64,000 bases of DNA from a bacterium (GTDB taxonomy: Bacteria > Patescibacteriota > Minisyncoccia > Phycocordibacterales > UBA5272), in contig JAYUJP010000001.1 in NCBI GenBank assembly GCA_043765155.1, positions 19,268 to 83,267 of the forward strand, given 5' to 3'. The translations under genes were made by a program, and so were the position numbers. Below, in pieces: positions 10,992 through 50,236 of the stretch (positions are counted from its first letter, which is position 1; every line of letters starts with the position of its first letter). The notes beneath the pieces are model-generated. The model worked only from the letters and a program-made list of their open reading frames with translations, was not told the origin of the DNA and searched no databases.

Positions 10992-11312
10992 ATCTGTCCC
11001 ATAAGCCGAATTCTGTTCTGCGTCTTTTATAAAACACATACGTAGATATTTATCTTGCTTGTATGTTACCATACAAATCTTTGCGACGACTCTGGCATAC
11101 AATAAAGTTACCAGCACGGTCTTGCACATATGTAAGTATTTAGCCGTTTCAGCCTAACTAAATAGGATCGTTTCTGTTCGCAACTCGCGTGTTACCACGT
11201 ATGGGTGTTACCCATTACACTTGTATACAATAAGTAAAACTATGTGTTCGGACTTTCCTCACTACCTAAAATAAATTTTAAGCTAGCGCATCTACTTGTT
11301 ACAGCTTATATA
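10992..11312 (-). ncRNA. rnpB: RNase P RNA, bacterial type A-like, compact at about 320 nt.
   Basis: The minus strand contains GAGGAAAGUCCGAACAC (P4 5' strand). It contains GGGUAACACCCAUACGUGGUAACACGCGAGUUGCGAACAGAAACGAUCC and GUGCAAGACCGUGCUGGUAAC. Its 3' end, ACAGAAUUCGGCUUAUGGGACAGAUGAG, matches E. coli ...ACAGAACCCGGCUUAUCGGUCAGUUUCACCU. The 5' AUAAGC pairs with the 3' GCUUAU to form P1. Confidence 0.75.
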
Positions 11313-11370: not shown

Positions 11371-11994
11371 TTAAAAGCTCACCTCGTCTCCGACTTTTAT
11401 ATTTAAGTCTTTTACTTTGCCAGAATTAATCTCTAAAACATATTTTGCTGGATTTTTATTACTCACAGTATTTGGGTAACTAGAAACTTTTACATTTTCA
11501 AATATATCACTTATTATTTTTCTAGTTTTTACTTCTCCTGTTACGTTATCTTTTACCATCTCTTCTTTTATGTACAAAATATCAAGATTATAATTCATAT
11601 CCTTCATCCAAAAGCTATAAATATCTTCTGTATCAAAAATAAATAACATAGCACATTTATCACATAAACTTTTTGTATTGCTGAGTCCATTTCTCCTAGA
11701 CTCATTTGTATCTGCTATTTTTAAATTAAAATTAGTAATAACTTTGTTGTCTTGTTGTGAAATTATATTTAAATTTTTATCATAAGAATATTCTATATAT
11801 TTTTTACTCATACTATTATCTTTATTTTTATTTATATCTAGATGAGCTAAATTATAATACACACCAATAATTATAAACAAAGTGATAACAGCGAAAAATA
11901 AAGACTGTAAAGAATTAGCTTTAGAAATATTTCTTATTTTTGACTCTTCTATTTTTGATGCAATCTCTTGATTATTATCCATGTTTGTTTTCAT
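11371..11994 (-). CDS. DUF192-domain protein (COG1430-like), membrane-anchored.
   Basis: N-terminal TM anchor. The C-terminal region has the DUF192-like pattern (LFIFDTEDIYSFWMKDMNYNLDILYI). Confidence 0.5.
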   Translation of the reverse strand: MKTNMDNNQEIASKIEESKIRNISKANSLQSLFFAVITLFIIIGVYYNLAHLDINKNKDNSMSKKYIEYSYDKNLNIISQQDNKVITNFNLKIADTNESRRNGLSNTKSLCDKCAMLFIFDTEDIYSFWMKDMNYNLDILYIKEEMVKDNVTGEVKTRKIISDIFENVKVSSYPNTVSNKNPAKYVLEINSGKVKDLNIKVGDEVSF

Positions 11995-12196: not shown

Positions 12197-12625
12197 ATGG
12201 CCAAAACAAAATTCGAAGTATATAAAGATAATAAGGGTAATTATCGCTGGAGACTACTTGCTCAAAATGGTGAGCCGGTGGCATCAAGCGGCGAAGGGTT
12301 TAAGGAAAAGAGAACAGCTATGAACGCTGTAAAGAAATTAAAAGAATGGGCTAATACCGAGACAATCCTGGATCTGGAAAAAATGAAAGAGGATGCTATT
12401 AAGCAAAAAGCAAAAGATACCAAAGCTAAAACTGCAGCAAAACCTACTGCAAAAACATCAACTAAAAAAACTGTAGCAAAGCCAGCTTCTAAAAAAGTAG
12501 CAGCGAAACCTGCGGCAAAAAAAGCTAATACAAAACCTGCTGCTCCAGCTAAGAAAACTGTAGCAAAGCCGGTGCAAGCAAAGGAAGTGATAAAAGAAGT
12601 AGTAATATCTAAGACTGTTATCTAA
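12197..12625 (+). CDS. YegP/DUF1508-domain protein fused to a Lys/Ala/Pro-rich histone-H1-like tail.
   Basis: N-terminal FEVYKDNKGNYRWRLLAQNGEPVASSGEGFKEKRTAMNAVKKLKE is a YegP repeat. The C-terminal 70 aa are AKPAAKK-type repeats. Confidence 0.6.
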   Translation: MAKTKFEVYKDNKGNYRWRLLAQNGEPVASSGEGFKEKRTAMNAVKKLKEWANTETILDLEKMKEDAIKQKAKDTKAKTAAKPTAKTSTKKTVAKPASKKVAAKPAAKKANTKPAAPAKKTVAKPVQAKEVIKEVVISKTVI

Positions 12626-32586: not shown

Positions 32587-32708
32587 GGTTTTAAAAAAAT
32601 AAAATACCCAGACAGAAATAAAAGCCATCTCAAGCTTAATCTGGTGTTTTTGTAGTTGAAATAAAAACTAAATACCAATTTTCTACGCAGTAACTTACTT
32701 ATTACCAA

Positions 32709-33845
32709 TTAAATATTAAGATCAATATCTGGTATATTCCCGTACCACTTTAATGCATTTTGTATTCCTTCATGCAAAGAGTCGTCTGGTAAAACAAACT
32801 TTACAAACTGAGGAGCTTGAGAAAGAATTTCATTGCCACCAGCATTTTTTTCTTGATCGTAATGGTAAGAATGATTAGTAAAGAATATAAAATTATAATC
32901 TGATTTATTATTTACTGAGATGATTTTATTTTTCCGCTTAGCATTTTTTATAATGTCTTTAACCCAAGGAACATCTTCCATTCTTGACTTATTTTCTAAT
33001 GGACTATTAATATCAATAAAAATAATATATGGCATTAAACCACACTCTTCTTTTTCCAAAGCACTTGTTAAAAGCCCCTGAATATCACCTTTTTTTGACT
33101 TATACATATCAAGTATACCTAATTGATTTAACACTCCCTTACGATGCCTACTCTTTGCTTCAACTCCTATTTTCGTGCCACTAACTTGATGCTCGGCAAT
33201 AAATTCGCAATGCTTAGCGGTTGAATTATCTATCCAAGTTATATTAAACCCCAGTCTAGCAATAACTGCAGCAATCATTATCTCATATCTGACTCCTTGA
33301 TATTCATTAGTATTTTTTAATCTTTGAATAAGCTTATCTGGGATATTAGATACATGATCAAGAGTAAAAATGTCAAAAGCTAAAGAGTAAATAGATTTTA
33401 TATAGCCATTTGGATTTGTAGAATAAACACCTTCTCTTACTTTTACACCATTAAAAATAGCAGACCCTTTAAGCTTTATAACCTCTGTAAAAGCTTTCTC
33501 TAAAAAATTAAGTTCTTCTTTTTTATATTTAATTTCATTTAACCATTCTGGTCCTAGTTTTTCTAAAAGTATAAAAATACAAAAATCACTAAATGTTTCA
33601 TGTTTATTGTCTCTTTGGTAGATTCTATTTTTAATAGCCCATATTTTTTTATCTTTGAAGATAATAGGATTAACATAGTTAACGTAAATACCAACCTCTT
33701 TTAATTTATTATCTTTAAGTTCTTTTTTTGCAAGCATTTGTAGTGCCATATGACTAATACTTTCTTTTTTCATGAGGCAACACTTTTTATATTTCTTACC
33801 ACTAAAACAGTAACATTTTTCATTTCGACCTATTTTATTATTCAT
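32709..33845 (-). CDS. SEC-C-motif (zinc-binding) protein with a putative C-terminal PD-(D/E)xK nuclease-like core.
   Basis: N-terminal NEKCYCFSGKKYKKCC is the SecA-C-terminal metal-binding motif. RYEIMIAAVIARLGFNITWID...KIGVEAKS fits E...hhhD...hExK. The nuclease call is inference. Confidence 0.45.
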   Translation of the reverse strand: MNNKIGRNEKCYCFSGKKYKKCCLMKKESISHMALQMLAKKELKDNKLKEVGIYVNYVNPIIFKDKKIWAIKNRIYQRDNKHETFSDFCIFILLEKLGPEWLNEIKYKKEELNFLEKAFTEVIKLKGSAIFNGVKVREGVYSTNPNGYIKSIYSLAFDIFTLDHVSNIPDKLIQRLKNTNEYQGVRYEIMIAAVIARLGFNITWIDNSTAKHCEFIAEHQVSGTKIGVEAKSRHRKGVLNQLGILDMYKSKKGDIQGLLTSALEKEECGLMPYIIFIDINSPLENKSRMEDVPWVKDIIKNAKRKNKIISVNNKSDYNFIFFTNHSYHYDQEKNAGGNEILSQAPQFVKFVLPDDSLHEGIQNALKWYGNIPDIDLNI

Positions 33846-33916
33846 TTTAGTTACATTACAATCTATACAATTTTTTTAAGCTAAATCCTCAACAGTATCA
33901 AAAATATTATGATTGA

Positions 33917-34648
33917 CTATTCTATTCCAAAACTTTTTTTTAATTTTGCAATATCTGCTGGATTTTCAAATTCCTTCCTTTTTTGTTCTTCTTCTGCCTT
34001 TTTAATTTCATCTCTTAGGATCTCAAAATCTTTAATCCAAGCACCTTCAATAAAAGCATCTACGGAGTTTGGGTAATACTCAGTACCCCATTCCTTCTCG
34101 GAAAGACTTTCACTTACATGCAAAACTTTTTCTTCATTAAGAAACATTTCTAGGTCTCCCCAGTAGCTGTCTTCATGGTTACCTGTTGAATGGATAAATT
34201 TATACTCTCTTCCGTTCATCATTAAAAGAATACACTCTTCTCTACTTTGCTTTTCGTCAACTTCTTTTGCCTCAGTAACTATCGTAGGCACTGAGTCTCT
34301 TGGAGTATGTCTAATCCAGCTTGGGTAATAGCGTATAGAATCGTGATATAAAGCATCAACAAGTTGTGGTATACCAGACTTCATAGCTTGATCCTTTTTC
34401 TTTTCAGCAAGGTCTCTGATTCTCTCTGCTTCACTTTGTACGGCATTATTAATCGCCTCTCCTGAAGGATAGTTTTCTTTGCAAGGCTCTTCTTTTTTAG
34501 AGATTAAGTCTTTCTTTCTGTTACGTGAAAAAATCCAACCAATAAAGATAGCTCCCCAAAAACTCCATCCATTACCAGCCTTTAAAATCCAATAAAAAAT
34601 AAAGAAGAATGCCAATGATATTGCTAACCACTTTATATTTATATTCAT
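33917..34648 (-). CDS. Hypothetical membrane protein (2 N-terminal TM plus a soluble domain).
   Basis: Hydrophobic N-terminus (LAISLAFFFIFYWIL, FWGAIFIGWIF). No family recognised. Confidence 0.4.
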   Translation of the reverse strand: MNINIKWLAISLAFFFIFYWILKAGNGWSFWGAIFIGWIFSRNRKKDLISKKEEPCKENYPSGEAINNAVQSEAERIRDLAEKKKDQAMKSGIPQLVDALYHDSIRYYPSWIRHTPRDSVPTIVTEAKEVDEKQSREECILLMMNGREYKFIHSTGNHEDSYWGDLEMFLNEEKVLHVSESLSEKEWGTEYYPNSVDAFIEGAWIKDFEILRDEIKKAEEEQKRKEFENPADIAKLKKSFGIE

Positions 34649-34790
34649 AATTATTATTCTATGTTAAAAAATAACGAAGATTTTTATATTTTACAATGCG
34701 TTATCCGTTTAATTTGGTGCTTGGACTGGCTAGTAGTCCTGACTGGCTCCGCACTTGGGACGATGTCCGAAAAGCAATTATAGAAAATAA

Positions 34791-36113
34791 TTAAATTTCA
34801 AAAAAGTAGTAAGCTGGTAAATATAGGTTATCATTTCTTTCTTCTTGAAAATTAAAGGGGTCATTTATAAAAAAAGGAGTACTCCTCATTTCTTTATACT
34901 CGTCTAAGTTTTTAGCAAATTTCAAATGAATGACTCTTGTCTTTGCGACTTTATTTTCTTCACCAAGAATATATAATATTTCGTTAGAATACCTTTTATG
35001 ATCGCCTCCTGATATTAAAATTGCTCTATTTATCTCATCGTTAGAAGAAATATATCCACTTTCAATAATGCTTTTAATACTGCTATAATTTCCTGTTTGA
35101 ATACTCTGAGGCGAATATCTTAACAATTCAACAGCAACACATATTATTGGATTTGGCTCTAGGTCTCTTAATTTTAAAGACACGTAGCTCTGATTTGCAA
35201 TCCTAAGAGCAAGTTTTAATTTACGCATAGTAAATCCAGAGTAATTTCTAAACATTGCCGATATTAGATCTTGTAATATTATTAACTGCGCTTCATTTTT
35301 TAATTCAAAAATATCAGATAAAAATCCATTCAGGTTACTAACTTTATTTTTATAAAAATGAATATAATCCATACATTTAAAGTAAACCTCCTGTGTATTA
35401 ATATTTTCGTAGCTTTGTGTAGAAACTGGAACAATTGCAATAATCTGCTTATTCAATTCTGGTGATTTTATGAATTGTTTAAATGTCTCTAAAAAATAAA
35501 ATCCTCCTTGACCAGCTCTATCTATATCTTCTAGTACAAAAATAATTTTTTTCTTATTGTTATTCTCAAGTAATTTTAGAAAAATATCTTGCATCTCAAA
35601 AACTCTTGTGGCGGGAGTTTTGTCTATAATATCTTTTGACTTAGCTCCAACTATAGCGGTTAATGTTTTTATTATTAAACCAACACTTGGTGAAATTGTA
35701 CTAATTAATTCCGCGCCTGAATTTATAATATCGCTAGTAATTCCAATATTTGTCTTTTTACTATCGTCTGAATTACCGTCTAGTTTACACTTAATCTCTT
35801 TCTCTTTCCCGAACTGTTTTGCTGTAGCTAAAATTAGACCATCCCACAACTCTCTTTTATCTGGAAACTGCCAGGCGTCAAAGTCTACCCAGTACTCTTC
35901 TTCCTTTTTATCTTCTCTTTTATTTTTTACACTTTCAATTAGACTACTTTTCCCAATACCATAATCACCCACAATACCCAAAATAACAGAATTATTAAAA
36001 GTGTCAATTTTTTGACATAATTCTGAAATTGGAATTTGATTTTCCATCCGATCTTCAGTAGAAATCTTTTCTTCTAGTAGCGAGATATTTTTAATGAAGC
36101 CTTTAGTTTGCAT
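34791..36113 (-). CDS. KAP-family P-loop NTPase.
   Basis: Walker A GDYGIGKSS is followed by the KAP-specific YWVDFDAWQFPDKRELWDGLI (FNAW...W). Walker B is KKIIFVLEDIDRA. Confidence 0.6.
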   Translation of the reverse strand: MQTKGFIKNISLLEEKISTEDRMENQIPISELCQKIDTFNNSVILGIVGDYGIGKSSLIESVKNKREDKKEEEYWVDFDAWQFPDKRELWDGLILATAKQFGKEKEIKCKLDGNSDDSKKTNIGITSDIINSGAELISTISPSVGLIIKTLTAIVGAKSKDIIDKTPATRVFEMQDIFLKLLENNNKKKIIFVLEDIDRAGQGGFYFLETFKQFIKSPELNKQIIAIVPVSTQSYENINTQEVYFKCMDYIHFYKNKVSNLNGFLSDIFELKNEAQLIILQDLISAMFRNYSGFTMRKLKLALRIANQSYVSLKLRDLEPNPIICVAVELLRYSPQSIQTGNYSSIKSIIESGYISSNDEINRAILISGGDHKRYSNEILYILGEENKVAKTRVIHLKFAKNLDEYKEMRSTPFFINDPFNFQEERNDNLYLPAYYFFEI

Positions 36114-36544
36114 GTGTAAATTTTATTAAGTTATTTTTTGCTGGTATTAATATTTAGCAATTTTATTAAATTATATTTTACCATAAAAAGAATTTTTATT
36201 CAGTTTAAAATAGTAAACTTTTAGTACTGAAAGTAACTTAAATTTAATTACCCACCCCCTTAAACCTCCTATAATAGATCAAATACTCTATCGTATATAT
36301 AACTTAAATCACTTTTGCAGTACCTCTAAAAACCTGTGAAGCTGGGGTTTATGTAGTTTGTATCAAATACACAAAATAAGAGGCTCTTTTCTGCGTAATT
36401 TTTTGATTTAGGCCATGTTTTTACTTGTCACTCTTTGCTATGTCATTTATCTTTGAGGCATGCATGGTATTAAGCTTCTCTCTCAGATTTCTTATACGTA
36501 TTATTTGTTTTATTTTTTCTTGCATATATTATTTTTTTCTTATG

Positions 36545-37222
36545 TTATATGTTTTTAGCTTCCTGTTTTGTATCTCCGTTACAAGTATTCGCTGACCAAA
36601 AACCAAGCTTATTATTTCTAGCAAAAACTTCTGCCTCTTTATAATCTTTTTGATATTTATATGGTAGATTGTAGGTGTATTCGTGTGCGTATCCATCCCT
36701 AATCATTTTCTCTTGATAAGAAGTTCCATTTTCAAGAAAGACATATCTTAAGAGTCTATTATACTTATCTCTTTCACCTTGGCTTGGGTCTACTTCAAGA
36801 TACACTTGTTTATCCCCTAGAAGTTCTGTAGCTTTTTTAGATGCTTCTTTAGCGAAGCATTGAACTGGTTTTCTTGGGTCTTTTGTTTCAGGTGTATCAA
36901 TACCAATTAAACGAATAGTGATGGACTCACCATCAACTAATACTTTAATAGTATCCCCATCTACAACATCTAAAACTTTATAGAGTGTAGAAGTAGATGT
37001 TTTAATTTCTTTTACTTCAATCTTAGGCGTGTTTATGATGTTTTGACTAGGTATCTGGGTAGTTATTTTCTCCTCCGATGTTTTTATGATTGGCTTATTT
37101 ATAGATATATAAAAAACTAAAAAAGTTGATATAGCTAAAATAATAAGTAATAAGTCAGCTATTGTAATTTTATGTTCAAGAAATTTTTTAATCATATTAT
37201 TTTCTAGGCATTCTACCTCCAC
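36545..37222 (-). CDS. Secreted or membrane-anchored staphylococcal (micrococcal) nuclease homologue (SNase/thermonuclease).
   Basis: VVDGDTIKVLVDGESITIRLIGIDTPE...RDKYNRLLRYVFLENG...GFW contains the SNase catalytic and Ca-binding motifs. There is an N-terminal TM. Confidence 0.75.
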   Translation of the reverse strand: MEVECLENNMIKKFLEHKITIADLLLIILAISTFLVFYISINKPIIKTSEEKITTQIPSQNIINTPKIEVKEIKTSTSTLYKVLDVVDGDTIKVLVDGESITIRLIGIDTPETKDPRKPVQCFAKEASKKATELLGDKQVYLEVDPSQGERDKYNRLLRYVFLENGTSYQEKMIRDGYAHEYTYNLPYKYQKDYKEAEVFARNNKLGFWSANTCNGDTKQEAKNI

Positions 37223-37895
37223 TGTCTAGACACTCTTCTTTACTTGCATAAGCGGTAAAGTTCTGTGTTTTATAATAATAAGTTCCTCCTTTTGGATGAC
37301 ATATACCTGTTCTGCTTTTCTTTATAGGTGGATTTTCTTGGTCAATTTCTTCGACATTACCTATTTTATTGTCTGTAAGCTGCCTTGCATTCCCTACATT
37401 AGAGTTGTTATCAACTACGTTGCTTGTAGGCTTAGTTCCTGTAAGGTTAAATAATGATATGCCAAAAACAGTAATTAGTATCGCCGCAATGATAGATTTT
37501 TTACTAAATTTAGAAAGTATATTATTTACTATATCTTTTTTAATTGTATATTTCCCGTTTTCAAAAATTAAATCTTTAGGAGTTTTATTAAATTGTTTTG
37601 CAAGTATAAGATACGAAAAATACAGCTTGCATCTTTCTATTTCTTGGTCAGTTATATTTTTAAGCCCGCTAATTTCTAATCTTTCTCTGAAAGAGGCGTC
37701 ACCTCCGAACCCTCTAAACAATACCTTAAAGAGTGCTTTTATAAAAATACTTCTCCCTTTTTCTTTACTCTCTAAGCCAAAGATGGATTGCATTTCCAAT
37801 GCTCCAGCATCAATATCCGTTTCACCATTTGGTAAGTGAGTGGACTCTATTTTTTCATATATTTTTTTAGTAGTAGTTATTTTTTCTTCTTCCAT
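37197..37895 (-). CDS. Hypothetical protein with an internal TM and a Cys-containing C-terminal domain.
   Basis: ORF overlapping the SNase gene start by 26 nt, on the same strand. The C-terminus is GICHPKGGTYYYK...EECLDSGGRMP. Confidence 0.4.
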   Translation of the reverse strand: MEEEKITTTKKIYEKIESTHLPNGETDIDAGALEMQSIFGLESKEKGRSIFIKALFKVLFRGFGGDASFRERLEISGLKNITDQEIERCKLYFSYLILAKQFNKTPKDLIFENGKYTIKKDIVNNILSKFSKKSIIAAILITVFGISLFNLTGTKPTSNVVDNNSNVGNARQLTDNKIGNVEEIDQENPPIKKSRTGICHPKGGTYYYKTQNFTAYASKEECLDSGGRMPRK

Positions 37896-37946
37896 AAATT
37901 TTTATATTGTTGAGATTTGTTAAAAATACTTATTTGGTTCGTGTAT

Positions 37947-38291
37947 TTATTGTTGGCTTTCTTTATAATCTCTATAATTTTCTCTTTCCGTATCATACAT
38001 AACTTCAATCGTGTTTTTATTTGCCTCATCTACAACCTTGGTTAAATCTGAACAGATCTTTTTGCTATTGTATTTAATAACTTCTAATTCTTTGTTTTTA
38101 TTAAAATAATCTTCACACGGAGAAGTAAAGAAGTCCCCGTCCTCTGTGTTAGTTAAGTAATGCTTAACAGTTTCTATCTCTTTATCTTTTTGTATAAAGC
38201 TAAGAAAAGCTAAAAACAAGAGCGCAAAAAGCACCATCGTTACAAAGGGGTGTCTTTCGGAATAGCTCATAATTTTATTATTTGTGTTCAT
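37947..38291 (-). CDS. Hypothetical small membrane-anchored protein.
   Basis: N-terminal TM (FVTMVLFALLFLAFLSFI). Operon position. Confidence 0.35.
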   Translation of the reverse strand: MNTNNKIMSYSERHPFVTMVLFALLFLAFLSFIQKDKEIETVKHYLTNTEDGDFFTSPCEDYFNKNKELEVIKYNSKKICSDLTKVVDEANKNTIEVMYDTERENYRDYKESQQ

Positions 38292-38296
38292 ATAAA

Positions 38297-38599
38297 TTAA
38301 CTAAAAGAGCTTACTATTATTTTAGATAAGGTAGCTAATATAGATATCACTAAGCCAGATACTAACCACCAGTCCTGAGACTTTAAGTTATTTCTTGTCA
38401 AAAGAAAAGCTATAGGATATACGGGTAAAGCAAATATGACTCCACCAAAGACATAAGCAACAAAAGACCCTATAGATCCCACAGAAATAGGCCCACCCAA
38501 AATTATAAGATAGGCACCGAATATGGCACTTATTAAGATAAGTTTTAATATAATATTATTTTTTCTTATAAAGCTATCAGATACTACGTTATTTTTCAT
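38297..38599 (-). CDS. Hypothetical small integral membrane protein (3 TM).
   Basis: Hydrophobic through most of its 100 aa. It is the first gene of the co-directional cluster. Confidence 0.35.
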   Translation of the reverse strand: MKNNVVSDSFIRKNNIILKLILISAIFGAYLIILGGPISVGSIGSFVAYVFGGVIFALPVYPIAFLLTRNNLKSQDWWLVSGLVISILATLSKIIVSSFS

Positions 38600-38864
38600 A
38601 TATTTATATATTATTTATTAAGATTTGCTTACTTAATACGAAACAAAATAAGCACCCCAGTAAGGTGCTCACAAACCAATAGACTTGCTACTGATATGTT
38701 TCCTTACATAGGATGCCTATGTTGGACACATCAATAGCACTAAATAGACACTTTTTAAAGTGTAGTCTTGTTGGTTTATGAGCATATATATTATAACATA
38801 ATTTACTAAAATTTACCCCTCTCACACCCTCTCATAAAATGAGAAAAAATGGTAAAATATAAGT

Positions 38865-39689
38865 ATGGTAAAAATTAAGACTAATTCAATTTTTGCTCTA
38901 TCAGAAGTTTTACAGTACATATCTTATTCAATTCATGATAATATATACAAAAAAGATGACCCAGTAAATTATAGCTACTGGGGTGTAGCTTTCAGTAATA
39001 CCTATAGAGATCTAAGAATAAATAACAGGGAAGTTCTGAGTGGTTACAGTTTTGAAAGCGACGTAAATAATTTAGCTATTAATTCAGTAAAAACTACAGA
39101 GATAGATTTTTTTAGAAATATTTTTAATATTATTTTTACTCTTGAGGAAAAAGGGTTAATCGAAAACTCAGATATTTTTATCGGCACTATGCTTGCCTGG
39201 TTCTTAGACCCAGTAAGATCATTTTATACAAAAATACAAAGAGAAGGTGCTCTCAATGCTATAAATTTGATTTTAGATAGGTATTACTGGGTTATAAAAT
39301 ATAGTAATTCTAGAAAAAAATATATATTTGAAAGACAGGTAATGGTTGCTTCGGTAGATAAAGATGCTATTTATATTAATAACGAGAGGGTTTTTATAAC
39401 TAAAGGACACCTTAAATACAAAAAAGATAATGATGAAATTGAGAAAATTAAAACTAAGCCAGCAGATATAAAAATACTTATTTTTTTAATTAGCTCAGGT
39501 AAAGCAAATATTAATAATTGGTTTAAGATTAAAGATTTGGCAACAAAATTGGGTTTAAAAGCTGGAACAGTCTCTAACTCCTTTTCTTCTTTTAGAGGAA
39601 TTTCTAAAATTATTAAAAGTGATCTTTTTGAAGATCGTGGGATAGACTCCAAAGGTAAAGATTTTAGGATAAATCCAAAAGTTTTATAA
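38865..39689 (+). CDS. Hypothetical protein with a possible C-terminal winged-helix. Candidate island regulator or replication protein.
   Basis: It is the only plus-strand gene between the minus-strand cluster and the recombinase. The C-terminal KIKDLATKLGLKAGTVSNSF is HTH-like. Confidence 0.35.
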   Translation: MVKIKTNSIFALSEVLQYISYSIHDNIYKKDDPVNYSYWGVAFSNTYRDLRINNREVLSGYSFESDVNNLAINSVKTTEIDFFRNIFNIIFTLEEKGLIENSDIFIGTMLAWFLDPVRSFYTKIQREGALNAINLILDRYYWVIKYSNSRKKYIFERQVMVASVDKDAIYINNERVFITKGHLKYKKDNDEIEKIKTKPADIKILIFLISSGKANINNWFKIKDLATKLGLKAGTVSNSFSSFRGISKIIKSDLFEDRGIDSKGKDFRINPKVL

Positions 39690-40116
39690 GCATGCTCATC
39701 AGCTCCTTCACCAATTTTTAGTGAAGGTATATTTTGACGTAAAATAGTAAAGAGTATATTTTTTAATAACCAGTAAATTTTCTTATAATATAGGTAAATT
39801 TTTTCTTTTTACAGAACCCATTTTTATAATGGGTATTTTTGCTTGACAAGATATGTTGATGAATGAGTTAAAAGAAGAGTAATAAGTTAAATATAAATAT
39901 TACAGTTAAAAATACAGGTAAATAAAAACCTACGTCTATCTTTATCAAATCTATGTAGCAGTAACATTTCTAGTAAAGTCTACAGACTTACTCTTAATAT
40001 TACCGCCAGAAATAATTATACAAGAAATTAGATAGTAATAGTAAAAAGTTTATTTTTCATTTACCTTAACTGTGAGTTACTTACTTTTTCTTATTATAAA
40101 AAGCCCCCAACACATA

Positions 40117-40266
40117 CATGCAATTATCAGCAAAAGCAATTCAAGATCTAAGAATTGAGCTTCGTAGAAACTACGGCGCTAGTGTTGATATTGCTTTAGA
40201 CAATGAGGAAGTTAACAGGGTGGGTGTTCTAATGCTTAATCTTGTCGCTTCTAAATTATGTGCATA
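40117..40266 (+). CDS. Possible small ORF of 49 aa in the 1.1-kb non-coding stretch.
   Basis: Translation: MQLSAKAIQDLRIELRRNYGASVDIALDNEEVNRVGVLMLNLVASKLCA. No clear RBS. Confidence 0.2.
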
Positions 40267-40966
40267 GTGGTGTCCTTGGTCAAAAAATGTTTTTTATTTA
40301 TTCCCAAAAAGTTGAGGAGGCAAAAAAGACCTCAACATATCAAAAAGAGATATAGTTAGCAAAATATAACCGCAGTCTCGTATTTTGTATCAGAAAACAC
40401 TATATCAGTAAAACGCAGACTACGCTAGAAACTATTACTTGATTATCTGATTTTACAAAACCAAGTTCAAACTTATACAACGGCTCCAAAAGTGATACTC
40501 TTCAGAGTAAATAGAGGGGGATTAAATAAAAAATTACATAATATGATATAAACTTACTTTCAACATGTAAGCAGGTTGCCTTTTCTTACCAACTCACCAA
40601 ATGTGATAAACAAAACAAGGAAAATATGTACAAAACAAGAAAACAACACAAATCAAAAATGCTTGAGTTAAGAGCAGATAAGTTACTAAAAAATACAATC
40701 ATTAAAAATAACACAAAATATGAAAACAAGATACGTAAAAGTTAAACAATTATACACTCAAGAATATTTAGATAGCAAATTACCTGTTATCAAATTCTAG
40801 AGTTTGTGATAAAATAAATAAGCTACACCAGATCCAAAAATAATTCATAAAATCATCTAAAATATTTGTGAATAAAAACGAGGCAACGATGCGGATCCGG
40901 TGTAGCAACTTAATCTCAAAATATCGCTGCCTCATTTTTGTTTATAAACTAACTAATAAAAATAAT

Positions 40967-42670
40967 ATGTACGAAATAAATTATGGTGAACTTAAGGCAG
41001 TGAATTATAATCGTAAATCTTCTGAGTCAGAAGAGAAGCAAATACTATCTATAGACTCTCAGATTGATGAAAATAAAAAGATAGTGAGTCAATTGGGTGT
41101 TAAAAGTCTTGATATTCTGAGGGAGTCAAAGTCTGGTAAGATGTCAAATAAGAGACCAATCTTTACTCAAATGATTAAAGATATTAAGGATGGTAAGTAC
41201 GATAGCATTGTATGTTGGAAACTTGATCGTCTGGCTCGTAACATGATTGATGGCGGGGTTGTAATGGACATGTTACAGCGTGGGACTATCAAGTGCATAA
41301 TCACTCCTAGTAAGATTTATCATAGCAGCGAGAATACTCTATTACTCTCTGTTGAGTTTGGTTCTGCTAACCAATTCGTGCGTGACCTATCTGTAAATGT
41401 TAAAAGGGGTCAGACTAAGAAAGCGTCAATTGGGTTACCTCATGGTGTCGCTACACTTGGATTTTTAAATGACAGAGCGGGAGAAAAAGGAAATAAAAAA
41501 TGGCTTGTGGACGAAGATAGGCTATGGAAAATTCAAAAACTATTTGAAATGTTTTTAACTGGTAATTACTCGGCTAGCAGACTCTATGAATATGCCATAA
41601 ATGAGCTAAAATTGACTACAGTTAAGAGGAAAAGAACTGGGGGTAACAATATAGCTTTGTCTAGAATATACGATATATTTAAAGATCCCGTGTATGCTGG
41701 ATACTTCTTTTACGATGAGCAGAGATATGAACTAGATAAAAATTTACCCAGAATAATATCAGAGGCAGAATATGAAAAAGTAAAAAGTCTCTTATCAAGA
41801 AAAAATATACCTAAAACTCAACATCATAAACCTGTATACTCTGGCTATATATCTTCTCCCCTTGGGGAATATATTGGCGGAGATATAAAAAAGCAACTTA
41901 TTTGTGATTGTAAGTTCAAATTTGCTTACTCTAAAAGAGAAACCTGTCCTAAATGTCTTGTTGAGATAAGTAAGCTGTCGAACCCAAAGTTTTTAGAATA
42001 TAGAAAGTATATAAACATAAAAAGAAAGAAAGCTAAGATCCTAGATAGAACCATAAAAGTAAAATCTATAGAAGAGTCTTCTATAGATAGTCAGCTGTCT
42101 AATCATATTGAACAGAGTTTATTTTTTGCAGACGAGGTTCTTGGGTGGGCTAAAAAATATATACATGAATTAGAAAACATAGAAATGAGAAACAAAATTC
42201 TCTTTGAGAGAAATAAAGAAAGCAGGAAAATAGAGTTATCTGATAAAAAGTCAAAAATGAGAAGCAGGCTCTATGAAAATCAAATTACTAACAGTGAGTA
42301 TGGCGAAGATCTGATTAAATTAGAAAAAGAATATTCTGATACAAAAGAAGAAATAGGCGACGCAAAGATAAACTGGATTGATAAGCTAGATAAAATTATA
42401 TCAGTAAGTAAAATTGCAAGGGACACTATCCTCAATGGAACCTATAATGAAAAAAGACAACTACTTTCAGACTTTAGTCCTAACCTAGTCTGGGATGAAG
42501 AAAAACTCTTAATTAACAATAATTATTTGATAAATAAAATTATTGTGGCCATAAAAGTCTCAAATCAAGAATTTGCAAAGTACGAACCTAATTTAAGCTT
42601 TGATATACAAGGCTTAAATGAAAAAACACCCCTTAAAAGAGATGATTTTTCTATTATGCTCCGTGAGTAG
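40967..42670 (+). CDS. Large serine recombinase with resolvase/invertase catalytic domain, recombinase domain and a C-terminal zinc-ribbon/coiled-coil. The likely start is MYEINYG. The longer ORF from 40868 is probably not translated.
   Basis: The catalytic N-terminus AVNYNRKSSESEEKQ...SIDSQ (Ser nucleophile region) and DSIVCWKLDRLARN are present. CPKC marks a zinc ribbon. The stop codon overlaps tRNA-Asn. Confidence 0.8.
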   Translation: MYEINYGELKAVNYNRKSSESEEKQILSIDSQIDENKKIVSQLGVKSLDILRESKSGKMSNKRPIFTQMIKDIKDGKYDSIVCWKLDRLARNMIDGGVVMDMLQRGTIKCIITPSKIYHSSENTLLLSVEFGSANQFVRDLSVNVKRGQTKKASIGLPHGVATLGFLNDRAGEKGNKKWLVDEDRLWKIQKLFEMFLTGNYSASRLYEYAINELKLTTVKRKRTGGNNIALSRIYDIFKDPVYAGYFFYDEQRYELDKNLPRIISEAEYEKVKSLLSRKNIPKTQHHKPVYSGYISSPLGEYIGGDIKKQLICDCKFKFAYSKRETCPKCLVEISKLSNPKFLEYRKYINIKRKKAKILDRTIKVKSIEESSIDSQLSNHIEQSLFFADEVLGWAKKYIHELENIEMRNKILFERNKESRKIELSDKKSKMRSRLYENQITNSEYGEDLIKLEKEYSDTKEEIGDAKINWIDKLDKIISVSKIARDTILNGTYNEKRQLLSDFSPNLVWDEEKLLINNNYLINKIIVAIKVSNQEFAKYEPNLSFDIQGLNEKTPLKRDDFSIMLRE

Positions 42671-42730
42671 GGATCGAACCTACGACCAATTCCTTAACAG
42701 GGAACTGCTCTACCGCTGAGCTATCACGGA
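42659..42730 (-). tRNA. tRNA-Asn (anticodon GTT).
   Basis: The minus strand reads TCCGTGATAGCTCAGCGGTAGAGCAGTTCC-CTGTTAA-GGAATTGGTCGTAGGTTCGATCCCTACTCACGGA+G. The cloverleaf has a GGTTCGATCC T-loop. The 3' 12 nt overlap the recombinase stop. Confidence 0.85.
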
Positions 42731-43707: not shown

Positions 43708-43783
43708 TGGTGCCAAGACCCGGGCTCGAACCGGGGACCCCTTCCTCTTCAGGGAAATGCTCTACCAACTGAGCTATCTTGGC
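43708..43783 (-). tRNA. tRNA-Phe (anticodon GAA) with an encoded CCA.
   Basis: The minus strand reads GCCAAGATAGCTCAGTTGGTAGAGCATTTCC-CTGAAGA-GGAAGGGGTCCCCGGTTCGAGCCCGGGTCTTGGCACCA. Confidence 0.85.
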
Positions 43784-44298: not shown

Positions 44299-44370
44299 GC
44301 CCTTGTAGTTAAATGGATATAACTGCTCCGTCCTAAGGAGTTATTGTGGGTTCGATTCCTGCCGAGGGCA
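44299..44370 (+). tRNA. tRNA-Arg (anticodon CCT).
   Basis: GCCCTTGTAGTTAAATGGATATAACTGCTCC-GTCCTAA-GGAGTTATTGTGGGTTCGATTCCTGCCGAGGGCA. The acceptor stem has one G-U pair. Confidence 0.75.
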
Positions 44371-44440
44371 CAAAAAATAAACGAAGTGTTTTTAAAAGTC
44401 TCAATTATCCCCACCAATAAAATAAGCCCGATTATTTTAT

Positions 44441-46512: not shown

Positions 46513-48258
46513 ATGCAAAAATTTGGAAGAAGTAACTTTAAACAAAACACAACATTAGTCGACACAAAAAGATCGGCTCATATATCAAACATAAAAGATG
46601 GTGACTACAGGATAATCAATCTTGGTGGTACTGAGGAGTGCGGCAAAAATATGACGCTCATAGAGTATAAAAACAGTATACTAATCATAAATGCTGGTGC
46701 CCAATTTTCAGCTAGCTCAATGCCTGGTGTTGACTTTATAATACCAAATATAAAATATCTCGAGGAAAATAAAGACAAGATAAAAGGTGTAATATTTACA
46801 ACTAGTACTCTGGAGTATAGCGGAGCCTTTCCTTTTATAAATGAAATGTTAAATTTTCCGCGCGTATATGGTAGACATTTTACAAATACACTTATACAAA
46901 AAAGAATTGAGAATAAGGGGCTAATCTGCAAGAACGACTTTATACCTGTAGAGGATAATATATCTCTGAATATTGGTGACTTTAAAGTTAGATTTTCAAA
47001 TACTCAGTCCTCTACTCCAGACTCTATGAATATATCTATAGAGACTATAGAAGGTGATATCACTTATATGAGTGACACAAAGCTAGATAAGAATAATGTA
47101 AAAAATCTTGAGACTTTGCCTAATTTTGAAAATAACACTAAGACACTTTGCCTTATTGCTGACTCACTTAATAGTGAAGTAGGGATAAGTGAATTTGAGC
47201 TGTCTGACACAAAAGAAAAACTTAAGAAAGTATTTGCTGAGACCAAAAATAAAATATTTATAACTACTTTTGCTAATAATATATATCATATTATTAAAAT
47301 AATAGAGCTAGCCAAAGAAATGGGAAAGAAAATAATATTAGACAGCAAAACAGTAGAAGAAAATATATCTAGCGCCCAAGAGATTGGACTTATAGGTAAA
47401 ATAGATGACGTAGTCATAGATATACTTGAAAAAGATAAACATAAATCAAGTGACCTTATATATATAGTAACAGGCGAAGAAGGACGTGAGATGGATACTA
47501 TACTCAAAATAGTCGAGACTGATTACAAGGGTATCAAAATCGAGGACGGTGACATAGTAATAATGGCAACACACCCTATTATACATAATCAGCGTGCAGC
47601 CCAGAACTTAAAAGATGGACTGTCACGTGCCGGAGCTGATACTATACATTATAAGTATAGCGATATACTTATAACTCAATCAGGTAGCGGCGAGGACCTA
47701 GCCAAGATACATCGTGCCCTTACACCAAAATTCTTTATACCTATGGCTGGTTGTCACTATATGTTACGCGTACATGCTGATATAGAGAGAAGACTAGGAA
47801 CCCCTGAAAACCATATCATAATACCTGATAATGGTATGATAATCGAGATACGTGATAACTGTCAGCGTATATCTAACACCCGTGAAAAAGTAGATACCGA
47901 GGTTGTAGTAGTGGATGGGAACAAAATAGGTAAGCTGCATAATGTGGTACTAAAAGATAGAGAAATACTAGGAGCCCAAGGAGTATTCTTTATAATATCA
48001 CTCATAGACATGCGCGGTCATAAGCTGAAAAAAGCTCCGGACCTAGCAACGCGTGGATTTGTATTTTTAAAAGAGTCACAAGAATTATTAGTCGGCGCTC
48101 GTGACATGTCCAAAAATATAATCGAGGAATATCTTTATAAAAATAATCACATAGAAATAGACGACATAAAGGAGGCTCTGCAGTCACAAATAGCCAAATA
48201 CCTTATGCTAAAAACAGCTAAGCAGCCAGTCGTAATACCTATAATTATAAGAGTCTAG
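46513..48258 (+). CDS. RNase J paralog (metallo-beta-lactamase/beta-CASP fold) lacking the canonical metal-binding motifs. Probably catalytically inactive.
   Basis: It aligns along its full length to the downstream RNase J. HGHLDH is replaced by TTSTLEY, HTGD by YMSDT, and SGHA by SGSGED. The TDST-like motif is ADSLN. Confidence 0.7.
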   Translation: MQKFGRSNFKQNTTLVDTKRSAHISNIKDGDYRIINLGGTEECGKNMTLIEYKNSILIINAGAQFSASSMPGVDFIIPNIKYLEENKDKIKGVIFTTSTLEYSGAFPFINEMLNFPRVYGRHFTNTLIQKRIENKGLICKNDFIPVEDNISLNIGDFKVRFSNTQSSTPDSMNISIETIEGDITYMSDTKLDKNNVKNLETLPNFENNTKTLCLIADSLNSEVGISEFELSDTKEKLKKVFAETKNKIFITTFANNIYHIIKIIELAKEMGKKIILDSKTVEENISSAQEIGLIGKIDDVVIDILEKDKHKSSDLIYIVTGEEGREMDTILKIVETDYKGIKIEDGDIVIMATHPIIHNQRAAQNLKDGLSRAGADTIHYKYSDILITQSGSGEDLAKIHRALTPKFFIPMAGCHYMLRVHADIERRLGTPENHIIIPDNGMIIEIRDNCQRISNTREKVDTEVVVVDGNKIGKLHNVVLKDREILGAQGVFFIISLIDMRGHKLKKAPDLATRGFVFLKESQELLVGARDMSKNIIEEYLYKNNHIEIDDIKEALQSQIAKYLMLKTAKQPVVIPIIIRV

Positions 48259-48307: not shown

Positions 48308-50236
48308 ATGCAAAATAACAACAATAAAAATAGTGGCGGATCATATCAAAACAAAAGGCCTGTAGCAGCTCCAAAAAGATTTGAATCAAAAGGTAGCTAC
48401 CCAGCGACTACACCAAAATCAAGTATGCCAAAATCAAATGACATATTAGATGGTATACAGAGAAAAGATTTTAAATCAAAAAGAGATAAAAAAATAGTGC
48501 AGCCAGTATTTGAAATGAAAATGGGTGAAGCAAATGAGACCGCTAATATACCACCTCTTGCTGATGGTGACATACGTATCATACATCTGGGCGGTGTAGA
48601 AGAGATTGGTAAAAATATGTCCATAGTCGAGTATAAGGATACTATTGTAGTTGTAGACTGTGGTATACAATTCTCAGAAGCTTCGACTCCAGGTATAGAC
48701 TTTATACTTCCTAATACCAAGTATCTAGAGGAGAGAAAGGACAAAATTAAAGGTGTATTTATAACTCATGGTCACCTAGACCATATTGGGGCTATACCCT
48801 ATATTATGCCGCGTATTGGTAACCCTAATCTTTATACTAGGAACTTTACTAGCCTAATGATAAGAAAAAGACATGAGGAGTTCCCATATCTTGATCCGCT
48901 CAAAATTAAAATTGTAGAGAAAACTGACGCCATAGATCTTGGTGGTCTTAAGGTTAGCTTCTTTGGAGTGTCACATGCTATACCGGACTCTATGGGTATC
49001 AGAATAGAGACACCGTACGGTGATATAGTTCATACAGGTGACCTGAGACTCGATCATGAGGCCGGCGTACCTAGCGAGCGTGAGCTAAAAAGCTTTGCTA
49101 GCTTTAACGAGAGAAAGACACTATTACTTATGACCGACTCGACTAATTGTGAGAATCCTGGATTTTCTATTTCTGACTCTATTGTGTATAGAAATATAGA
49201 AACTGCTATACGTGATACTAATGGTAGGCTTATAGTCTCTACTTTTTCTTCACAGGTTGAGCGTATGTTATTTATGCTAGAATGCGCCGAAAAATATGGC
49301 AAAAAAGTAGTAGTCGAAGGTAGAAGTATGAAAACAAATGTCGAGGTTACTAGACTTGCTGACATGATGAAAATAAAACCAGAGACTATTATACCAATAG
49401 AAACTATGGATAATTATCCGCCTAATAAGTTAGTCTTGATGGTAACAGGAGCTCAGGGTGAGGACTTTGCGGCACTGGGTCGTATAGGTCTCAAGAATCA
49501 TAAATATATCAAGTTATCTAAATACGATACTATACTTATGAGTAGCTCAATAGTGCCAGGTAATGAAAGGCCCGTACAAAAGTTAAAAGATAATCTCTCA
49601 AGACAAGGGGCGCATCTTATACTCTATAATACAAGCGATATACACTCTTCAGGTCACGCTAATGCTGACGAGCTAGCGTGGATACACAAGGCTATTAACC
49701 CTAAATTCTTTATACCGGTACACGGATATCATTATATGTTAGCAACACATGCTAATATAGCGATGAAGACTTTAGGTATACCAAGAAAAAGCGTAGTTAT
49801 ACCTGATAATGGTATGGTTATAGAAATAAGGGACAAGGGTGAGACCATAACTCATCTAAAAGAATACGCTCCTCGTGACCTACTAGTTGTAGATGGTACT
49901 AGTGTGGGTAAAATAGCCGACGTCATCATCAAAGATAGGCAGAATCTAGGTGATGAAGGTGTATTCTCAGTTATAGTGCTCATCGACTCGTTTACAAAAA
50001 GATTAAAGAAATCTCCAGACATAGCCTCACGTGGGTTCATATATTTAAAAGAATCTCAGGAGCTACTATTTCAAGTGCGCGAAGAGATAAAGCAAATATG
50101 TGAAAAATATCTACGTGAAAATGCCACCATCAACACTGATGACTTGCGTGCTATCTTAAAACTAAAAGTTCAAGAAATGCTAGTTGACGCTACTGCAAAG
50201 AAGCCGGTAATAATGCCAATTATTATTACTATTTAG
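48308..50236 (+). CDS. rnj: Ribonuclease J (5'-3' exo/endoribonuclease) with a Lys/Ser-rich N-terminal extension.
   Basis: Motif 2 HGHLDHIG, HTGDLRLD and the beta-CASP motifs TDSTN and SGHAN. The C-terminal domain is present. Confidence 0.85.
   Translation: MQNNNNKNSGGSYQNKRPVAAPKRFESKGSYPATTPKSSMPKSNDILDGIQRKDFKSKRDKKIVQPVFEMKMGEANETANIPPLADGDIRIIHLGGVEEIGKNMSIVEYKDTIVVVDCGIQFSEASTPGIDFILPNTKYLEERKDKIKGVFITHGHLDHIGAIPYIMPRIGNPNLYTRNFTSLMIRKRHEEFPYLDPLKIKIVEKTDAIDLGGLKVSFFGVSHAIPDSMGIRIETPYGDIVHTGDLRLDHEAGVPSERELKSFASFNERKTLLLMTDSTNCENPGFSISDSIVYRNIETAIRDTNGRLIVSTFSSQVERMLFMLECAEKYGKKVVVEGRSMKTNVEVTRLADMMKIKPETIIPIETMDNYPPNKLVLMVTGAQGEDFAALGRIGLKNHKYIKLSKYDTILMSSSIVPGNERPVQKLKDNLSRQGAHLILYNTSDIHSSGHANADELAWIHKAINPKFFIPVHGYHYMLATHANIAMKTLGIPRKSVVIPDNGMVIEIRDKGETITHLKEYAPRDLLVVDGTSVGKIADVIIKDRQNLGDEGVFSVIVLIDSFTKRLKKSPDIASRGFIYLKESQELLFQVREEIKQICEKYLRENATINTDDLRAILKLKVQEMLVDATAKKPVIMPIIITI

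Follow-up and report, generated by a model that had tools for sequence, protein, structure and literature searches.

A putative 7.9-kb integrative element of Paceibacteria with a large serine recombinase overlapping the 3' end of tRNA-Asn

Introduction

Islands and prophages that enter transfer RNA (tRNA) genes by means of tyrosine integrases (P4-like elements) leave direct repeats of 15-50 nt of the tRNA 3' part, and sublocation classes of integration within tRNA genes were reportedly set out by Williams in 2002. This study concerns a 64,000-nt stretch of a low-GC (~32%) patescibacterial genome (contig JAYUJP010000001.1 of assembly GCA_043765155.1, positions 19,268 to 83,267; hereafter, the window, the whole stretch that was analyzed), in which the gene of a large serine recombinase (LSR) ends inside the 3' end of a tRNA-Asn(GTT) gene on the opposite strand. 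Positions 34746-42663 of the window are read here as a 7.9-kb integrative element whose own LSR recombines an attachment site (attP) in its last codons with an attB at the 3' end of tRNA-Asn, a reading to which we assign a probability of roughly 0.85.

Attachment sites within the coding sequence of an element are known from tyrosine recombinases. In SSV1-type archaeal elements, attP lies within int and integration splits the gene into two large parts, and in the integration-dependent immunity of mycobacteriophages a degradation tag is removed from the repressor. Among serine integrases, the directionality factors of TP901-1, A118 and SPbeta are about 60 amino acids (aa) long. With respect to the target, Mageeney et al. 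(2020) assigned 4.9% of serine-integrase elements to t(m)RNA genes and treated such use as unreported and in need of proof (PMC7192596). Among the tycheposons of Prochlorococcus, in which tyrosine recombinases overwhelmingly prevail, 27 of 937 use a large serine recombinase (10.1101/2020.12.28.424599).

The recombinase and its overlap with tRNA-Asn

Translated from its ATG, the LSR is identical to database protein P0001 (567 aa) and contains Resolvase (PF00239, 2.6e-16) and Recombinase (PF07508, 8.4e-08) domains. The catalytic-domain residues Y14, R16, S18 and R88-R91 and four cysteines (C313, C315, C327 and C330) are invariant in a 26-sequence alignment (A1), and a Lys/Glu-rich stretch after the zinc ribbon is, on reading the sequence, the sole hint of an inserted coiled coil. 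The nearest solved structures are the catalytic domains of SPbeta SprA and the TP901-1 integrase, with the best PDB match (E ~6e-10) confined to the N-terminal half. The enzyme is predicted to be a divergent LSR; in its Resolvase domain, Recombinase domain and predicted Cys4 zinc ribbon it resembles the integrases of Listeria A118/LI, SPbeta (SprA), TP901-1, Bxb1 and phiC31.

The coordinates from ARAGORN, Rfam and the open reading frames (ORFs) agree with a preliminary description of the window in placing the recombinase stop codon (TAG, 42668-42670) inside the 3' end of the intact tRNA-Asn (Table 1). The overlap amounts to 12 nt by the Rfam coordinates or 13 nt by those of ARAGORN. The recombinase gene closes with the codons CTC CGT GAG TAG, which are complementary to the discriminator, to the acceptor strand on its 3' side and to the T-stem where it begins. 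The tRNA-Phe and tRNA-Arg genes that had been placed within the following 1.7 kb were recovered by ARAGORN as well, and an Rfam scan of 32.5-42.8 kb at a permissive threshold returned no RNA family except tRNA.

A total of 743 homologues of the LSR were detected, mostly ~560-565 aa long, ~50% identical and annotated as Parcubacteria, Nomurabacteria or Paceibacterota, and a scan of species-representative genomes produced 79 LSR loci (loci and contigs are referred to below by L numbers). At 25 loci, an opposite-strand tRNA-Asn(GTT) overlaps the end of the LSR gene in the same register as in the window, the recombinases being 38-56% identical. Among 120 homologue clusters, 80 have the tRNA-truncated form, ending in ..MLR[GE]. 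TTTTCTACNATG followed by CTCCGN codes for the conserved C-terminus ..F-S-T-M-L-R, and the stop codon in the related loci is mostly the TAG of the T-stem. Chromosomal genes to the right of the tRNA are conserved in many loci, and the gene content to the left of the recombinase is variable, including apparent restriction-modification and Fic genes, prim-pol and KAP. Because it recurs in 25 related Paceibacteria loci, the overlap between LSR and tRNA-Asn is far beyond chance and is a trait of the family. An accidental overlap of convergent genes within an ordinary variable region is hardly credible on these grounds. Small candidate-phyla-radiation genomes are tightly packed, and no informative compositional break was seen (GC is 0.27-0.35 within the element, against 0.25-0.41 for the remaining window sequence), but the shared overlap is joined by the strand- and position-specific att motif, the 5-bp offset between attB and attP, the tandem arrays and the circular form described below.

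The element family is apparently widespread in Paceibacteria (Parcubacteria, candidate phyla radiation) and undescribed, and no description of this LSR family in Patescibacteria was found in the literature. Recombinases of ~30% identity also end inside the opposite-strand 3' ends of other tRNA genes, namely tRNA-Met in Gottesmanbacteria and tRNA-Arg in an Altimarinota genome, which suggests a broader clade that targets tRNA 3' ends and is older than the specificity for tRNA-Asn.

Attachment sites and element boundaries

In recombinase copies that have no tRNA behind them, the ORF runs on as ..MLR-TWDDVR.., encoded by GCTCCG-NAC-NTGGGANGATGTTCGAA. Since the same sequence as this continuing tail is found at 34746-34775, in the spacer between the genes for the 243-aa protein and the KAP NTPase, this position is taken as the second att site (attL) of the window element. 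In frame, it reads LRTWDDVRKAIIENN followed by a stop, and its P' half-site encodes the detached recombinase tail, TWDDVRKAIIENN, with a stop codon. The present element is predicted to span 34746-42663, with GCTCCG at both ends. A search with the family P' consensus, GCTCCGAACGTGGGAGGATGTTCGAA, allowing up to 6 mismatches, gave 31 matches in the window and the 79 loci, all on the recombinase strand and upstream of the recombinase, and 0 in shuffled sequences. The implied element sizes, from P' site to recombinase end, were 3.6-11.5 kb, with the upper bound set by the 10-kb upstream flank that was fetched. The window P' is nearly identical to the junction behind the recombinase in L005, and joining the P arm of the window to its P' restores an ORF that ends in ..SIMLRTWDDVRKAIIENN and a stop, matching the tails of non-integrated or tandem copies such as L005 (..MLRTWDDVRTDILERK and a stop), protein P0098 and others. 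The attP junction reconstructed in this way for the window element reads ...GATGATTTTTCTATTATGCTCCGCACTTGGGACGATGTCCGAAAAGC, and its vacated site ...GGCTAGTAGTCCTGACTGGCTCCGTGAGTAGGGATCGAACC.

The preliminary description had taken 32709-42730 as a single island of about 10 kb and had looked to a 10-25-nt direct repeat of the tRNA 3' segment for its other end. All genes from 32709 to 42670 look accessory, no boundary was found to the left of 32709, and the genes at 32.7-34.7 kb could be mobile too. However, no direct repeat of the tRNA 3' segment was found in the window with up to 3 mismatches, general repeat finding at 25-46 kb revealed no att repeat, 25-40-nt probes found none in 24 loci, and the tRNA 3' half is not repeated within 10 kb upstream in 23 related loci. 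Additionally, the specific att site at 34746 falls inside the proposed island, and the remnant of a recombinase gene to its left marks the end of a different unit. A single island bounded by a decayed tRNA repeat is therefore quite unlikely, and its extent is better replaced by the 7.9 kb given above; the expectation of a 10-25-nt repeat was misplaced because it derives from tyrosine integrases.

In the window, attL and attR have GCTCCG in common; over the family as a whole, the shared sequence shrinks to GCTC(C). In L002, attL has GCTCCG and attR has GCTCGG; these share only GCTC, which narrows the probable crossover, a 2-bp staggered one in LSRs, to within GCTC, at the boundary between discriminator and trailer. 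With a crossover at the extreme 3' end of the tRNA, nearly the whole tRNA would be host DNA. Three contigs (L027, L038 and L046) have one terminus precisely within the core, a pattern to be expected where a sampled population contains alternative junctions side by side.

Measured from the core G, the T-loop motif TCGAA has an offset of 16 in the tRNA junctions (n = 25) and of 21 in the P' sites (n = 34). For the LI integrase, Rutherford et al. found the zinc-ribbon-domain motif 5 bp nearer the center in attB than in attP (PMC3783163). The 5-bp offset matches this rule, suggesting that the tRNA side is B' and the detached arm is P'. TTTCGAAC is also encoded in tails of a second class, ..D-[EK]-F-R-T..W, which points to the DNA motif, and not the peptide, as the conserved feature. 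In their minimal common core, GCTC(C), and 5-bp motif shift, the predicted sites are those of an LSR; phage LSRs likewise have short att sites with a very small common core and a 5-bp shift of the motif between attB and attP (PMC3783163).

The terminator arm

Within the last ~20 recombinase codons, GAAAAAAC precedes a 7-bp stem with its loop and return strand, and TTTTTTCTAC follows. On the opposite strand, this P arm resembles an intrinsic terminator for tRNA-Asn, lying antisense within the last ~15 codons of the recombinase, and a simple terminator scan independently finds the hairpin and T-run. In a gap-free alignment of 31 sequences, 97.2% of cells are paired, compensatory changes occur at 7 of 7 pairs and the observed values were equalled by 0 of 500 shuffles; pairing falls to 31-43% when the hairpin partners are slid. 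The pairing favors the tRNA strand (211/217 cells, 45 G-U included, vs. 170/217 on the recombinase strand), as does the mean folding energy (-16.6 vs. -10.0 kcal/mol). Native left arms elsewhere also consist of a hairpin and T-run abutting GCTCCG. The element would, on this evidence, swap the terminator of the tRNA for a mimic written antisense into the C-terminal codons of its recombinase. Combined, the locus has the properties of a tRNA-gene element: an integrase at one end, hybrid attL and attR sites, a target tRNA that is kept (69.7 bits), and a trailer and terminator apparently supplied by the element.

Circular form and tandem arrays

A free form was detected for a relative of the window element. 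The 572-aa homologue P0098, which has the full tail, is encoded on L102 and L103 from two sequencing runs. These contigs are 100%-identical circular permutations, and a 23-nt terminal overlap in L102 gives a circle of 7,771 bp, with attP intact inside the 572-aa recombinase gene. The circle carries DUF5659 and AAA_25 genes, and its AAA_25 protein is 54% identical to the product of the gene upstream of the integrated recombinase in L017. A free circle is the simpler reading of L102 and L103; a tandem duplication could in principle also give permuted contigs. Terminal-overlap tests of 14 full contigs were negative.

Integration of successive elements at the same site is evident in tandem arrays. 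In L036, a recombinase is followed by 7.7 kb, a second recombinase, tRNA-Asn and the conserved chromosomal genes. In L044, an intact 507-aa recombinase ending in ..LELASSPNWLR abuts the P' site of an element that is also present in L027. In the window, the left arm of attL is itself a remnant of a recombinase gene of this second type, reading ..NLVLGLASSPDWLR, with 73% identity over 33 aa (E 8e-11, tblastn) to the 507-aa recombinase of L044 (4739-6262). The remnant left of attL makes the window a two-unit tandem array in which the older unit has lost its recombinase. The current element does not include the genes for the SEC-C and 243-aa proteins, which probably represent cargo of this older, decayed neighbor; no att-like site that could mark its left boundary was found in 32587-32708 or elsewhere in 20-34.7 kb.

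A number of loci (L027/L044 and the others listed in Table 1) have two or three P' sites ahead of a single recombinase, at spacings of 0.4-1.6 kb; these may derive from decayed elements or from small units that have no recombinase. Such stacks could also point to a resident, domesticated recombinase that keeps an integron-like cassette platform beside tRNA-Asn, capturing recombinase-less units bounded by P-arm-like and P' sites and stacking them in trans at the end of the tRNA. A metagenome scan for junctions of P arm and P' would agree with this alternative, as 4 of its 5 matches have no intact recombinase upstream. We nevertheless regard it as very unlikely, since short units are equally well explained by the decay of older elements, the recombinases found at this one tRNA are very diverse (38-56% identity, several types), the circular form bears its own recombinase, and cargo travels with the recombinase, as in the element shared by L027 and L044.

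Table 1. Positions of the features discussed, in the window and in related loci.
Feature	Sequence	Position (nt)	Strand	Basis or remark
LSR, integrated form, 567 aa	window	40967-42670	+	Pfam; start ATG at 40967
tRNA-Asn(GTT), intact	window	42658-42730	-	ARAGORN; Rfam 42659-42730, 69.7 bits
attL core GCTCCG	window	34746-34751	+	identical to attR core
P' half-site CACTTGGGACGATGTCCGAAA	window	34752-34794	+	family P' consensus, 4 mismatches
attR core GCTCCG	window	42658-42663	+	complement of tRNA acceptor positions 69-72, discriminator and next base
B' half-site (tRNA-Asn)	window			T-loop TCGAA 16 nt from core G
Predicted P-arm intrinsic terminator for tRNA-Asn	window	42621-42657	-	terminator scan; hairpin 42644-42627 and U-run
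Remnant, last ~20 codons of second-type (507-aa class) serine recombinase (..FNLVLGLASSPDWLR)	window	34684-34751	+	tblastn
SEC-C-motif protein (PF02810)	window	32709-33845	-	left of attL
243-aa protein	window	33917-34648	-	left of attL
KAP-family P-loop NTPase, PifA/QatA-like	window	34791-36113	-	Pfam PF07693 2.6e-09; PADLOC PifA 2e-10
Membrane-anchored SNase-like protein	window	36545-37222	-	Pfam PF00565 3.2e-24; PADLOC candidate SNc+LTD 2.7e-45
Three small proteins (232, 114 and 100 aa; membrane or Cys-containing)	window	37197-38599	-	ORFs
274-aa protein, C-terminal winged helix	window	38865-39689	+	AlphaFold2 pLDDT 86
49-aa protein, c1 family	window	40118-40267	+	tblastn
tRNA-Phe	window	43708-43783		ARAGORN
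tRNA-Arg	window	44299-44371		ARAGORN
tRNA-Met overlapped by distant recombinase (Gottesmanbacteria)	L050; L051	11686-11756; 11680-11750
tRNA-Arg TCG overlapped by distant recombinase (Altimarinota genome)	L053	11657-11733
Stacked P' sites	L002	1207/2801/3499
Stacked P' sites	L004	94/877
Stacked P' sites	L006	239/731
Stacked P' sites	L007	324/1070
Stacked P' sites	L027	2/797
Stacked P' sites	L035	4171/4609
Group I intron in tRNA	L002	11714-11999	-	5' exon ~12279-12316
Group I intron in tRNA	L031	8272-8497	-
Group I intron in tRNA	L052	11735-11920	-
LOOT RNA	L002	6028-6153
LOOT RNA	L041	6680-6800
LOOT RNA	L036	289-408
LOOT RNA	L012	8422-8547
LOOT RNA	L044	8314-8431
LOOT RNA	L027	2093-2210
LOOT RNA	L018	3585-3709 and 13285-13410
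LOOT RNA	L022	8193-8316

Variation at the tRNA junction

Several loci depart from the common junction. Two recombinases of the family end in ..FSTFDAYPF (L012, ~11650-11715) and ..FSTIDVYPI (L035, ~8670-8768), with the DNA TTTTCTACCATTGATGTGTACCCC and without MLR plus tRNA or P'; their arm departs directly after the T-run, and a different target site or a rearranged junction may be responsible. Additional incomplete, tRNA-like T-arm fragments adjoin the junction of recombinase and tRNA in L039 (2245-2275, with GCTCCCCACATAGGGATCGAACCTA just past the tRNA 5' end) and in L007 (~11025-11094, where the 3' part of the tRNA is interrupted behind the T-stem and a second T-arm comes next), both of which are read as rearrangements at the hotspot.

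Group I introns (Rfam RF00028, 68-79 bits) split the anticodon loop of the tRNA adjoining the recombinase in three loci (Table 1) and probably also in L041 and L028, where the contigs end. The intron of L002 carries a minus-strand ORF for a candidate homing endonuclease. ARAGORN misses tRNA genes split in this way, and introns in tRNA-Asn seem to be common in this group. The junctions of L002, L041 and L028, in which the tRNA 3' half is followed by foreign DNA, had been considered as attP sites with a crossover in the anticodon loop; this was ruled out, as the insertion in L002 is a group I intron.

Core genes and cargo

Most elements share a plus-strand module consisting of a fast-evolving gene for ~240-300 aa, sometimes a gene for ~80-100 aa, a gene for ~50-60 aa (c1) and the recombinase. 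In the window, this module corresponds to the genes for the 274-aa protein, the 49-aa protein and the LSR, and the ~80-100-aa gene has no counterpart. The 274-aa gene, the positional equivalent of the gene that opens the core in most members, has only 11 homologue clusters among 1.84 billion representatives. The winged-helix-turn-helix (wHTH) character that had been ascribed to its C-terminus at the outset agrees with the AlphaFold2 model and with Foldseek, which matches wHTH regulators over the C-terminal ~75 aa only; the protein may be a regulator or replication initiator.

The stretch between this gene and the recombinase, previously described as 1.1 kb of non-coding DNA, holds the conserved 49-aa gene. 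By tblastn, at least 22 related loci encode homologues of its product (c1) ahead of the recombinase gene; no match was found in Pfam, PHROGs or PDB, and a word-indexed homologue search returned 2 proteins only. By its size and position, c1 is a candidate recombination directionality factor or regulator, and such a small gene adjoining int could play the part of the TP901-1, A118 and SPbeta factors. The other conserved small protein of the family, c2, is absent from the window and has no Pfam or PHROG match. A 39-aa ORF (40626-40745, plus strand) between the 49-aa gene and the recombinase is called in public contigs; over its first 23 residues it shares 78% identity with a segment of L040.

The cargo genes of the window (a KAP NTPase, an SNase-like protein and three small, co-directional proteins), together with the SEC-C gene beyond attL, correspond to the gene content reported earlier. 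Pfam recognized the KAP NTPase, the SNase-like protein and the SEC-C protein; the small proteins have no Pfam match and are called as genes in public contigs. The KAP NTPase matches PifA/QatA models, and the L035 element carries a homologue of it with 39% identity; the nuclease matches a PADLOC candidate model, and no complete known defense system is present. The KAP NTPase, nuclease and small membrane proteins probably serve anti-phage defense. Related elements appear, judged from their sequences alone, to carry restriction-modification and Fic genes, and L104 has a Pfam-annotated pair of DNA methylase and NgoFVII-type restriction genes. Very large surface or cell-wall proteins are encoded in two elements of the full-tail (attP) form (L087, 986-5596, and L101, 7547-8560, both on the minus strand), one of them with 1536 aa and Beta_helix, Big_7 and PG_binding domains, indicating that cargo is not restricted to defense genes.

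Serine integrases are typical of temperate phages, and some relatives of the element have Phage_rep_O-like or prim-pol (PF09250) genes. A prophage or phage satellite at tRNA-Asn is highly improbable. Pfam found no virion or packaging genes among nine window ORFs, and Pfam and PHROGs found none among representative cargo proteins of relatives (capsid, portal, terminase and tail genes were all undetected); the elements measure only 3.6-11.5 kb; and a scan of IMG/VR returned only distant recombinases, 23-26% identical, and no close relative.

LOOT RNA (Rfam RF03000, 51-95 bits) occurs inside several of the recombinase loci (Table 1) and, with one exception, precedes the recombinase. In L022 and L027 it is divergent from, and just upstream of, the ~240-300-aa core gene. 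It is absent from the window element and no described function was found for it; LOOT may be an element-borne regulatory or replication RNA. To the right of the tRNA genes, the window contains two adjacent RNase J paralogues (beta-CASP and RNase_J_C; 46513-48258 and 48308-50236, plus strand), the first of which has no match to the metallo-beta-lactamase domain families that the second one matches.

Mechanism and comparison with known systems

The combined results agree in essence with the earlier proposal that a mobile element was placed at tRNA-Asn by the adjoining LSR, given the overlap across the family and the pair of att sites. The LSR would recombine attP, inside its own last codons, with an attB comprising the extreme 3' end of tRNA-Asn and the downstream terminator. 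A crossover in GCTC (discriminator and acceptor end) would leave nearly the whole tRNA host-encoded, and the P arm would replace the tRNA 3' trailer with its own terminator of A-run, hairpin and U-run, dual-coded with the recombinase C-terminus (..NEKT..F.PVFSTMLR). The P' arm would present a T-loop-like TTCGAA 5 bp further from the core than in the tRNA. Integration would move P' to attL together with the last 13 codons of the recombinase, and the integrated enzyme would end in tRNA-encoded codons (L-R-E-stop), with the stop in the T-stem. New elements could then enter the same tRNA end and build tandem arrays. The window would hold what decay has left of an older element, whose recombinase was of another type: a gene remnant of ~70 nt and perhaps the SEC-C and 243-aa genes.

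Several observations weigh against this reading, at least for the window copy. Neither attP nor a circular form of the window's own element was seen, and no replication or transfer gene was recognized in it. Relatives carry prim-pol, AAA_25 or Phage_rep_O-like genes, and in the window element only the wHTH 274-aa protein could fill a replication role. The key motif of the window P' is substituted (T-to-C; GTCCGAAA vs. GTTCGAA) and the window hairpin is weaker than the family mean (-12.2 vs. -16.6 kcal/mol); the copy may be active at present, or, given these two changes, it may be immobilized and no longer able to move. No empty tRNA-Asn site was found in close relatives of the window organism. 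A pattern scan of GTDB species genomes for the flanking DHH protein found no relative, and relatives with a 64%-identical flanking protein have a different synteny. The preliminary description had named, as the case that would count against it, a block present in all close relatives without an att repeat or a compositional discontinuity; this case does not apply. The only close relative found (L089, same strain, 99.5% identical) does carry the same element at an occupied site, but an att pair is present. The tandem arrays stand in for the empty site as evidence for the boundaries. Finally, native B arms resemble decayed P arms, so that the assignment of certain attL sites in other loci is doubtful.

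Compared with phage LSRs, the family differs in its distant sequence and its candidate-phyla-radiation hosts as well as in its unusual features, which are the tRNA target, the attP inside the recombinase ORF and the dual-coded terminator arm. With P4-like islands it shares an int gene that abuts the tRNA 3' end, a tRNA whose function is kept by element sequence, and tandem accretion; unlike these islands, it uses another enzyme family and chemistry, has no more than 4-6 nt in common between its two ends, and would cross over at the discriminator. As in SSV1 and the mycobacteriophages, attP lies in a coding sequence of the element and integration alters the encoded protein, but only the last 13 codons of a serine recombinase would be exchanged here. 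The closest functional analogue is the tycheposons, which are also small, cargo-carrying and tRNA-targeting, many with their own primase/helicase (10.1101/2020.12.28.424599). These belong to a different phylum, and neither an attP in the integrase ORF nor a terminator-mimicking arm is mentioned for them in the excerpted text of that report (10.1101/2020.12.28.424599).

A more speculative and rather doubtful extension, drawn by analogy, is that the tail exchange acts as a state switch. The free form, with its 13-aa tail ..MLR-TWDDVRKAIIENN, would be competent for integration, and the integrated form, which ends in tRNA-encoded codons beyond the terminator hairpin in the ORF, would be weakened or would depend on the 49-aa protein for excision. 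Together with the stacked P' sites, tRNA-Asn would then be a self-regulating platform for defense cargo across Patescibacteria, and the sister clades at tRNA-Met and tRNA-Arg would behave alike. Such a switch would be analogous to integration-dependent immunity, but would act on the serine integrase itself.

Significance

Serine integrases are the main tools for the insertion of large DNA, and tRNA genes are held to be essentially a target of tyrosine integrases. The present findings suggest that a whole clade of LSRs, with hundreds of homologue clusters, uses the tRNA 3' end, with half-sites that can be read from genomes. Dozens of natural sets of attP, attB, attL and attR are thereby provided, with a 5-bp rule built on the universal T-loop that may explain the retargeting of sister clades to tRNA-Met and tRNA-Arg. 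The overlapping constraints are unusual in that the recombinase C-terminus, the tRNA acceptor end and a putative antisense terminator occupy the same bases. The LSR element family should be of moderately high relevance to specialists in recombinases and in the candidate phyla radiation. In these bacteria, in which genetic manipulation is difficult, such an element could plausibly serve as the starting point of a vector, being small and integrative, with a circular form and a defined chromosomal site, and, if the predicted defense function of the cargo holds, LSR elements would be a main route by which the reduced genomes of the candidate phyla radiation gain defense genes.

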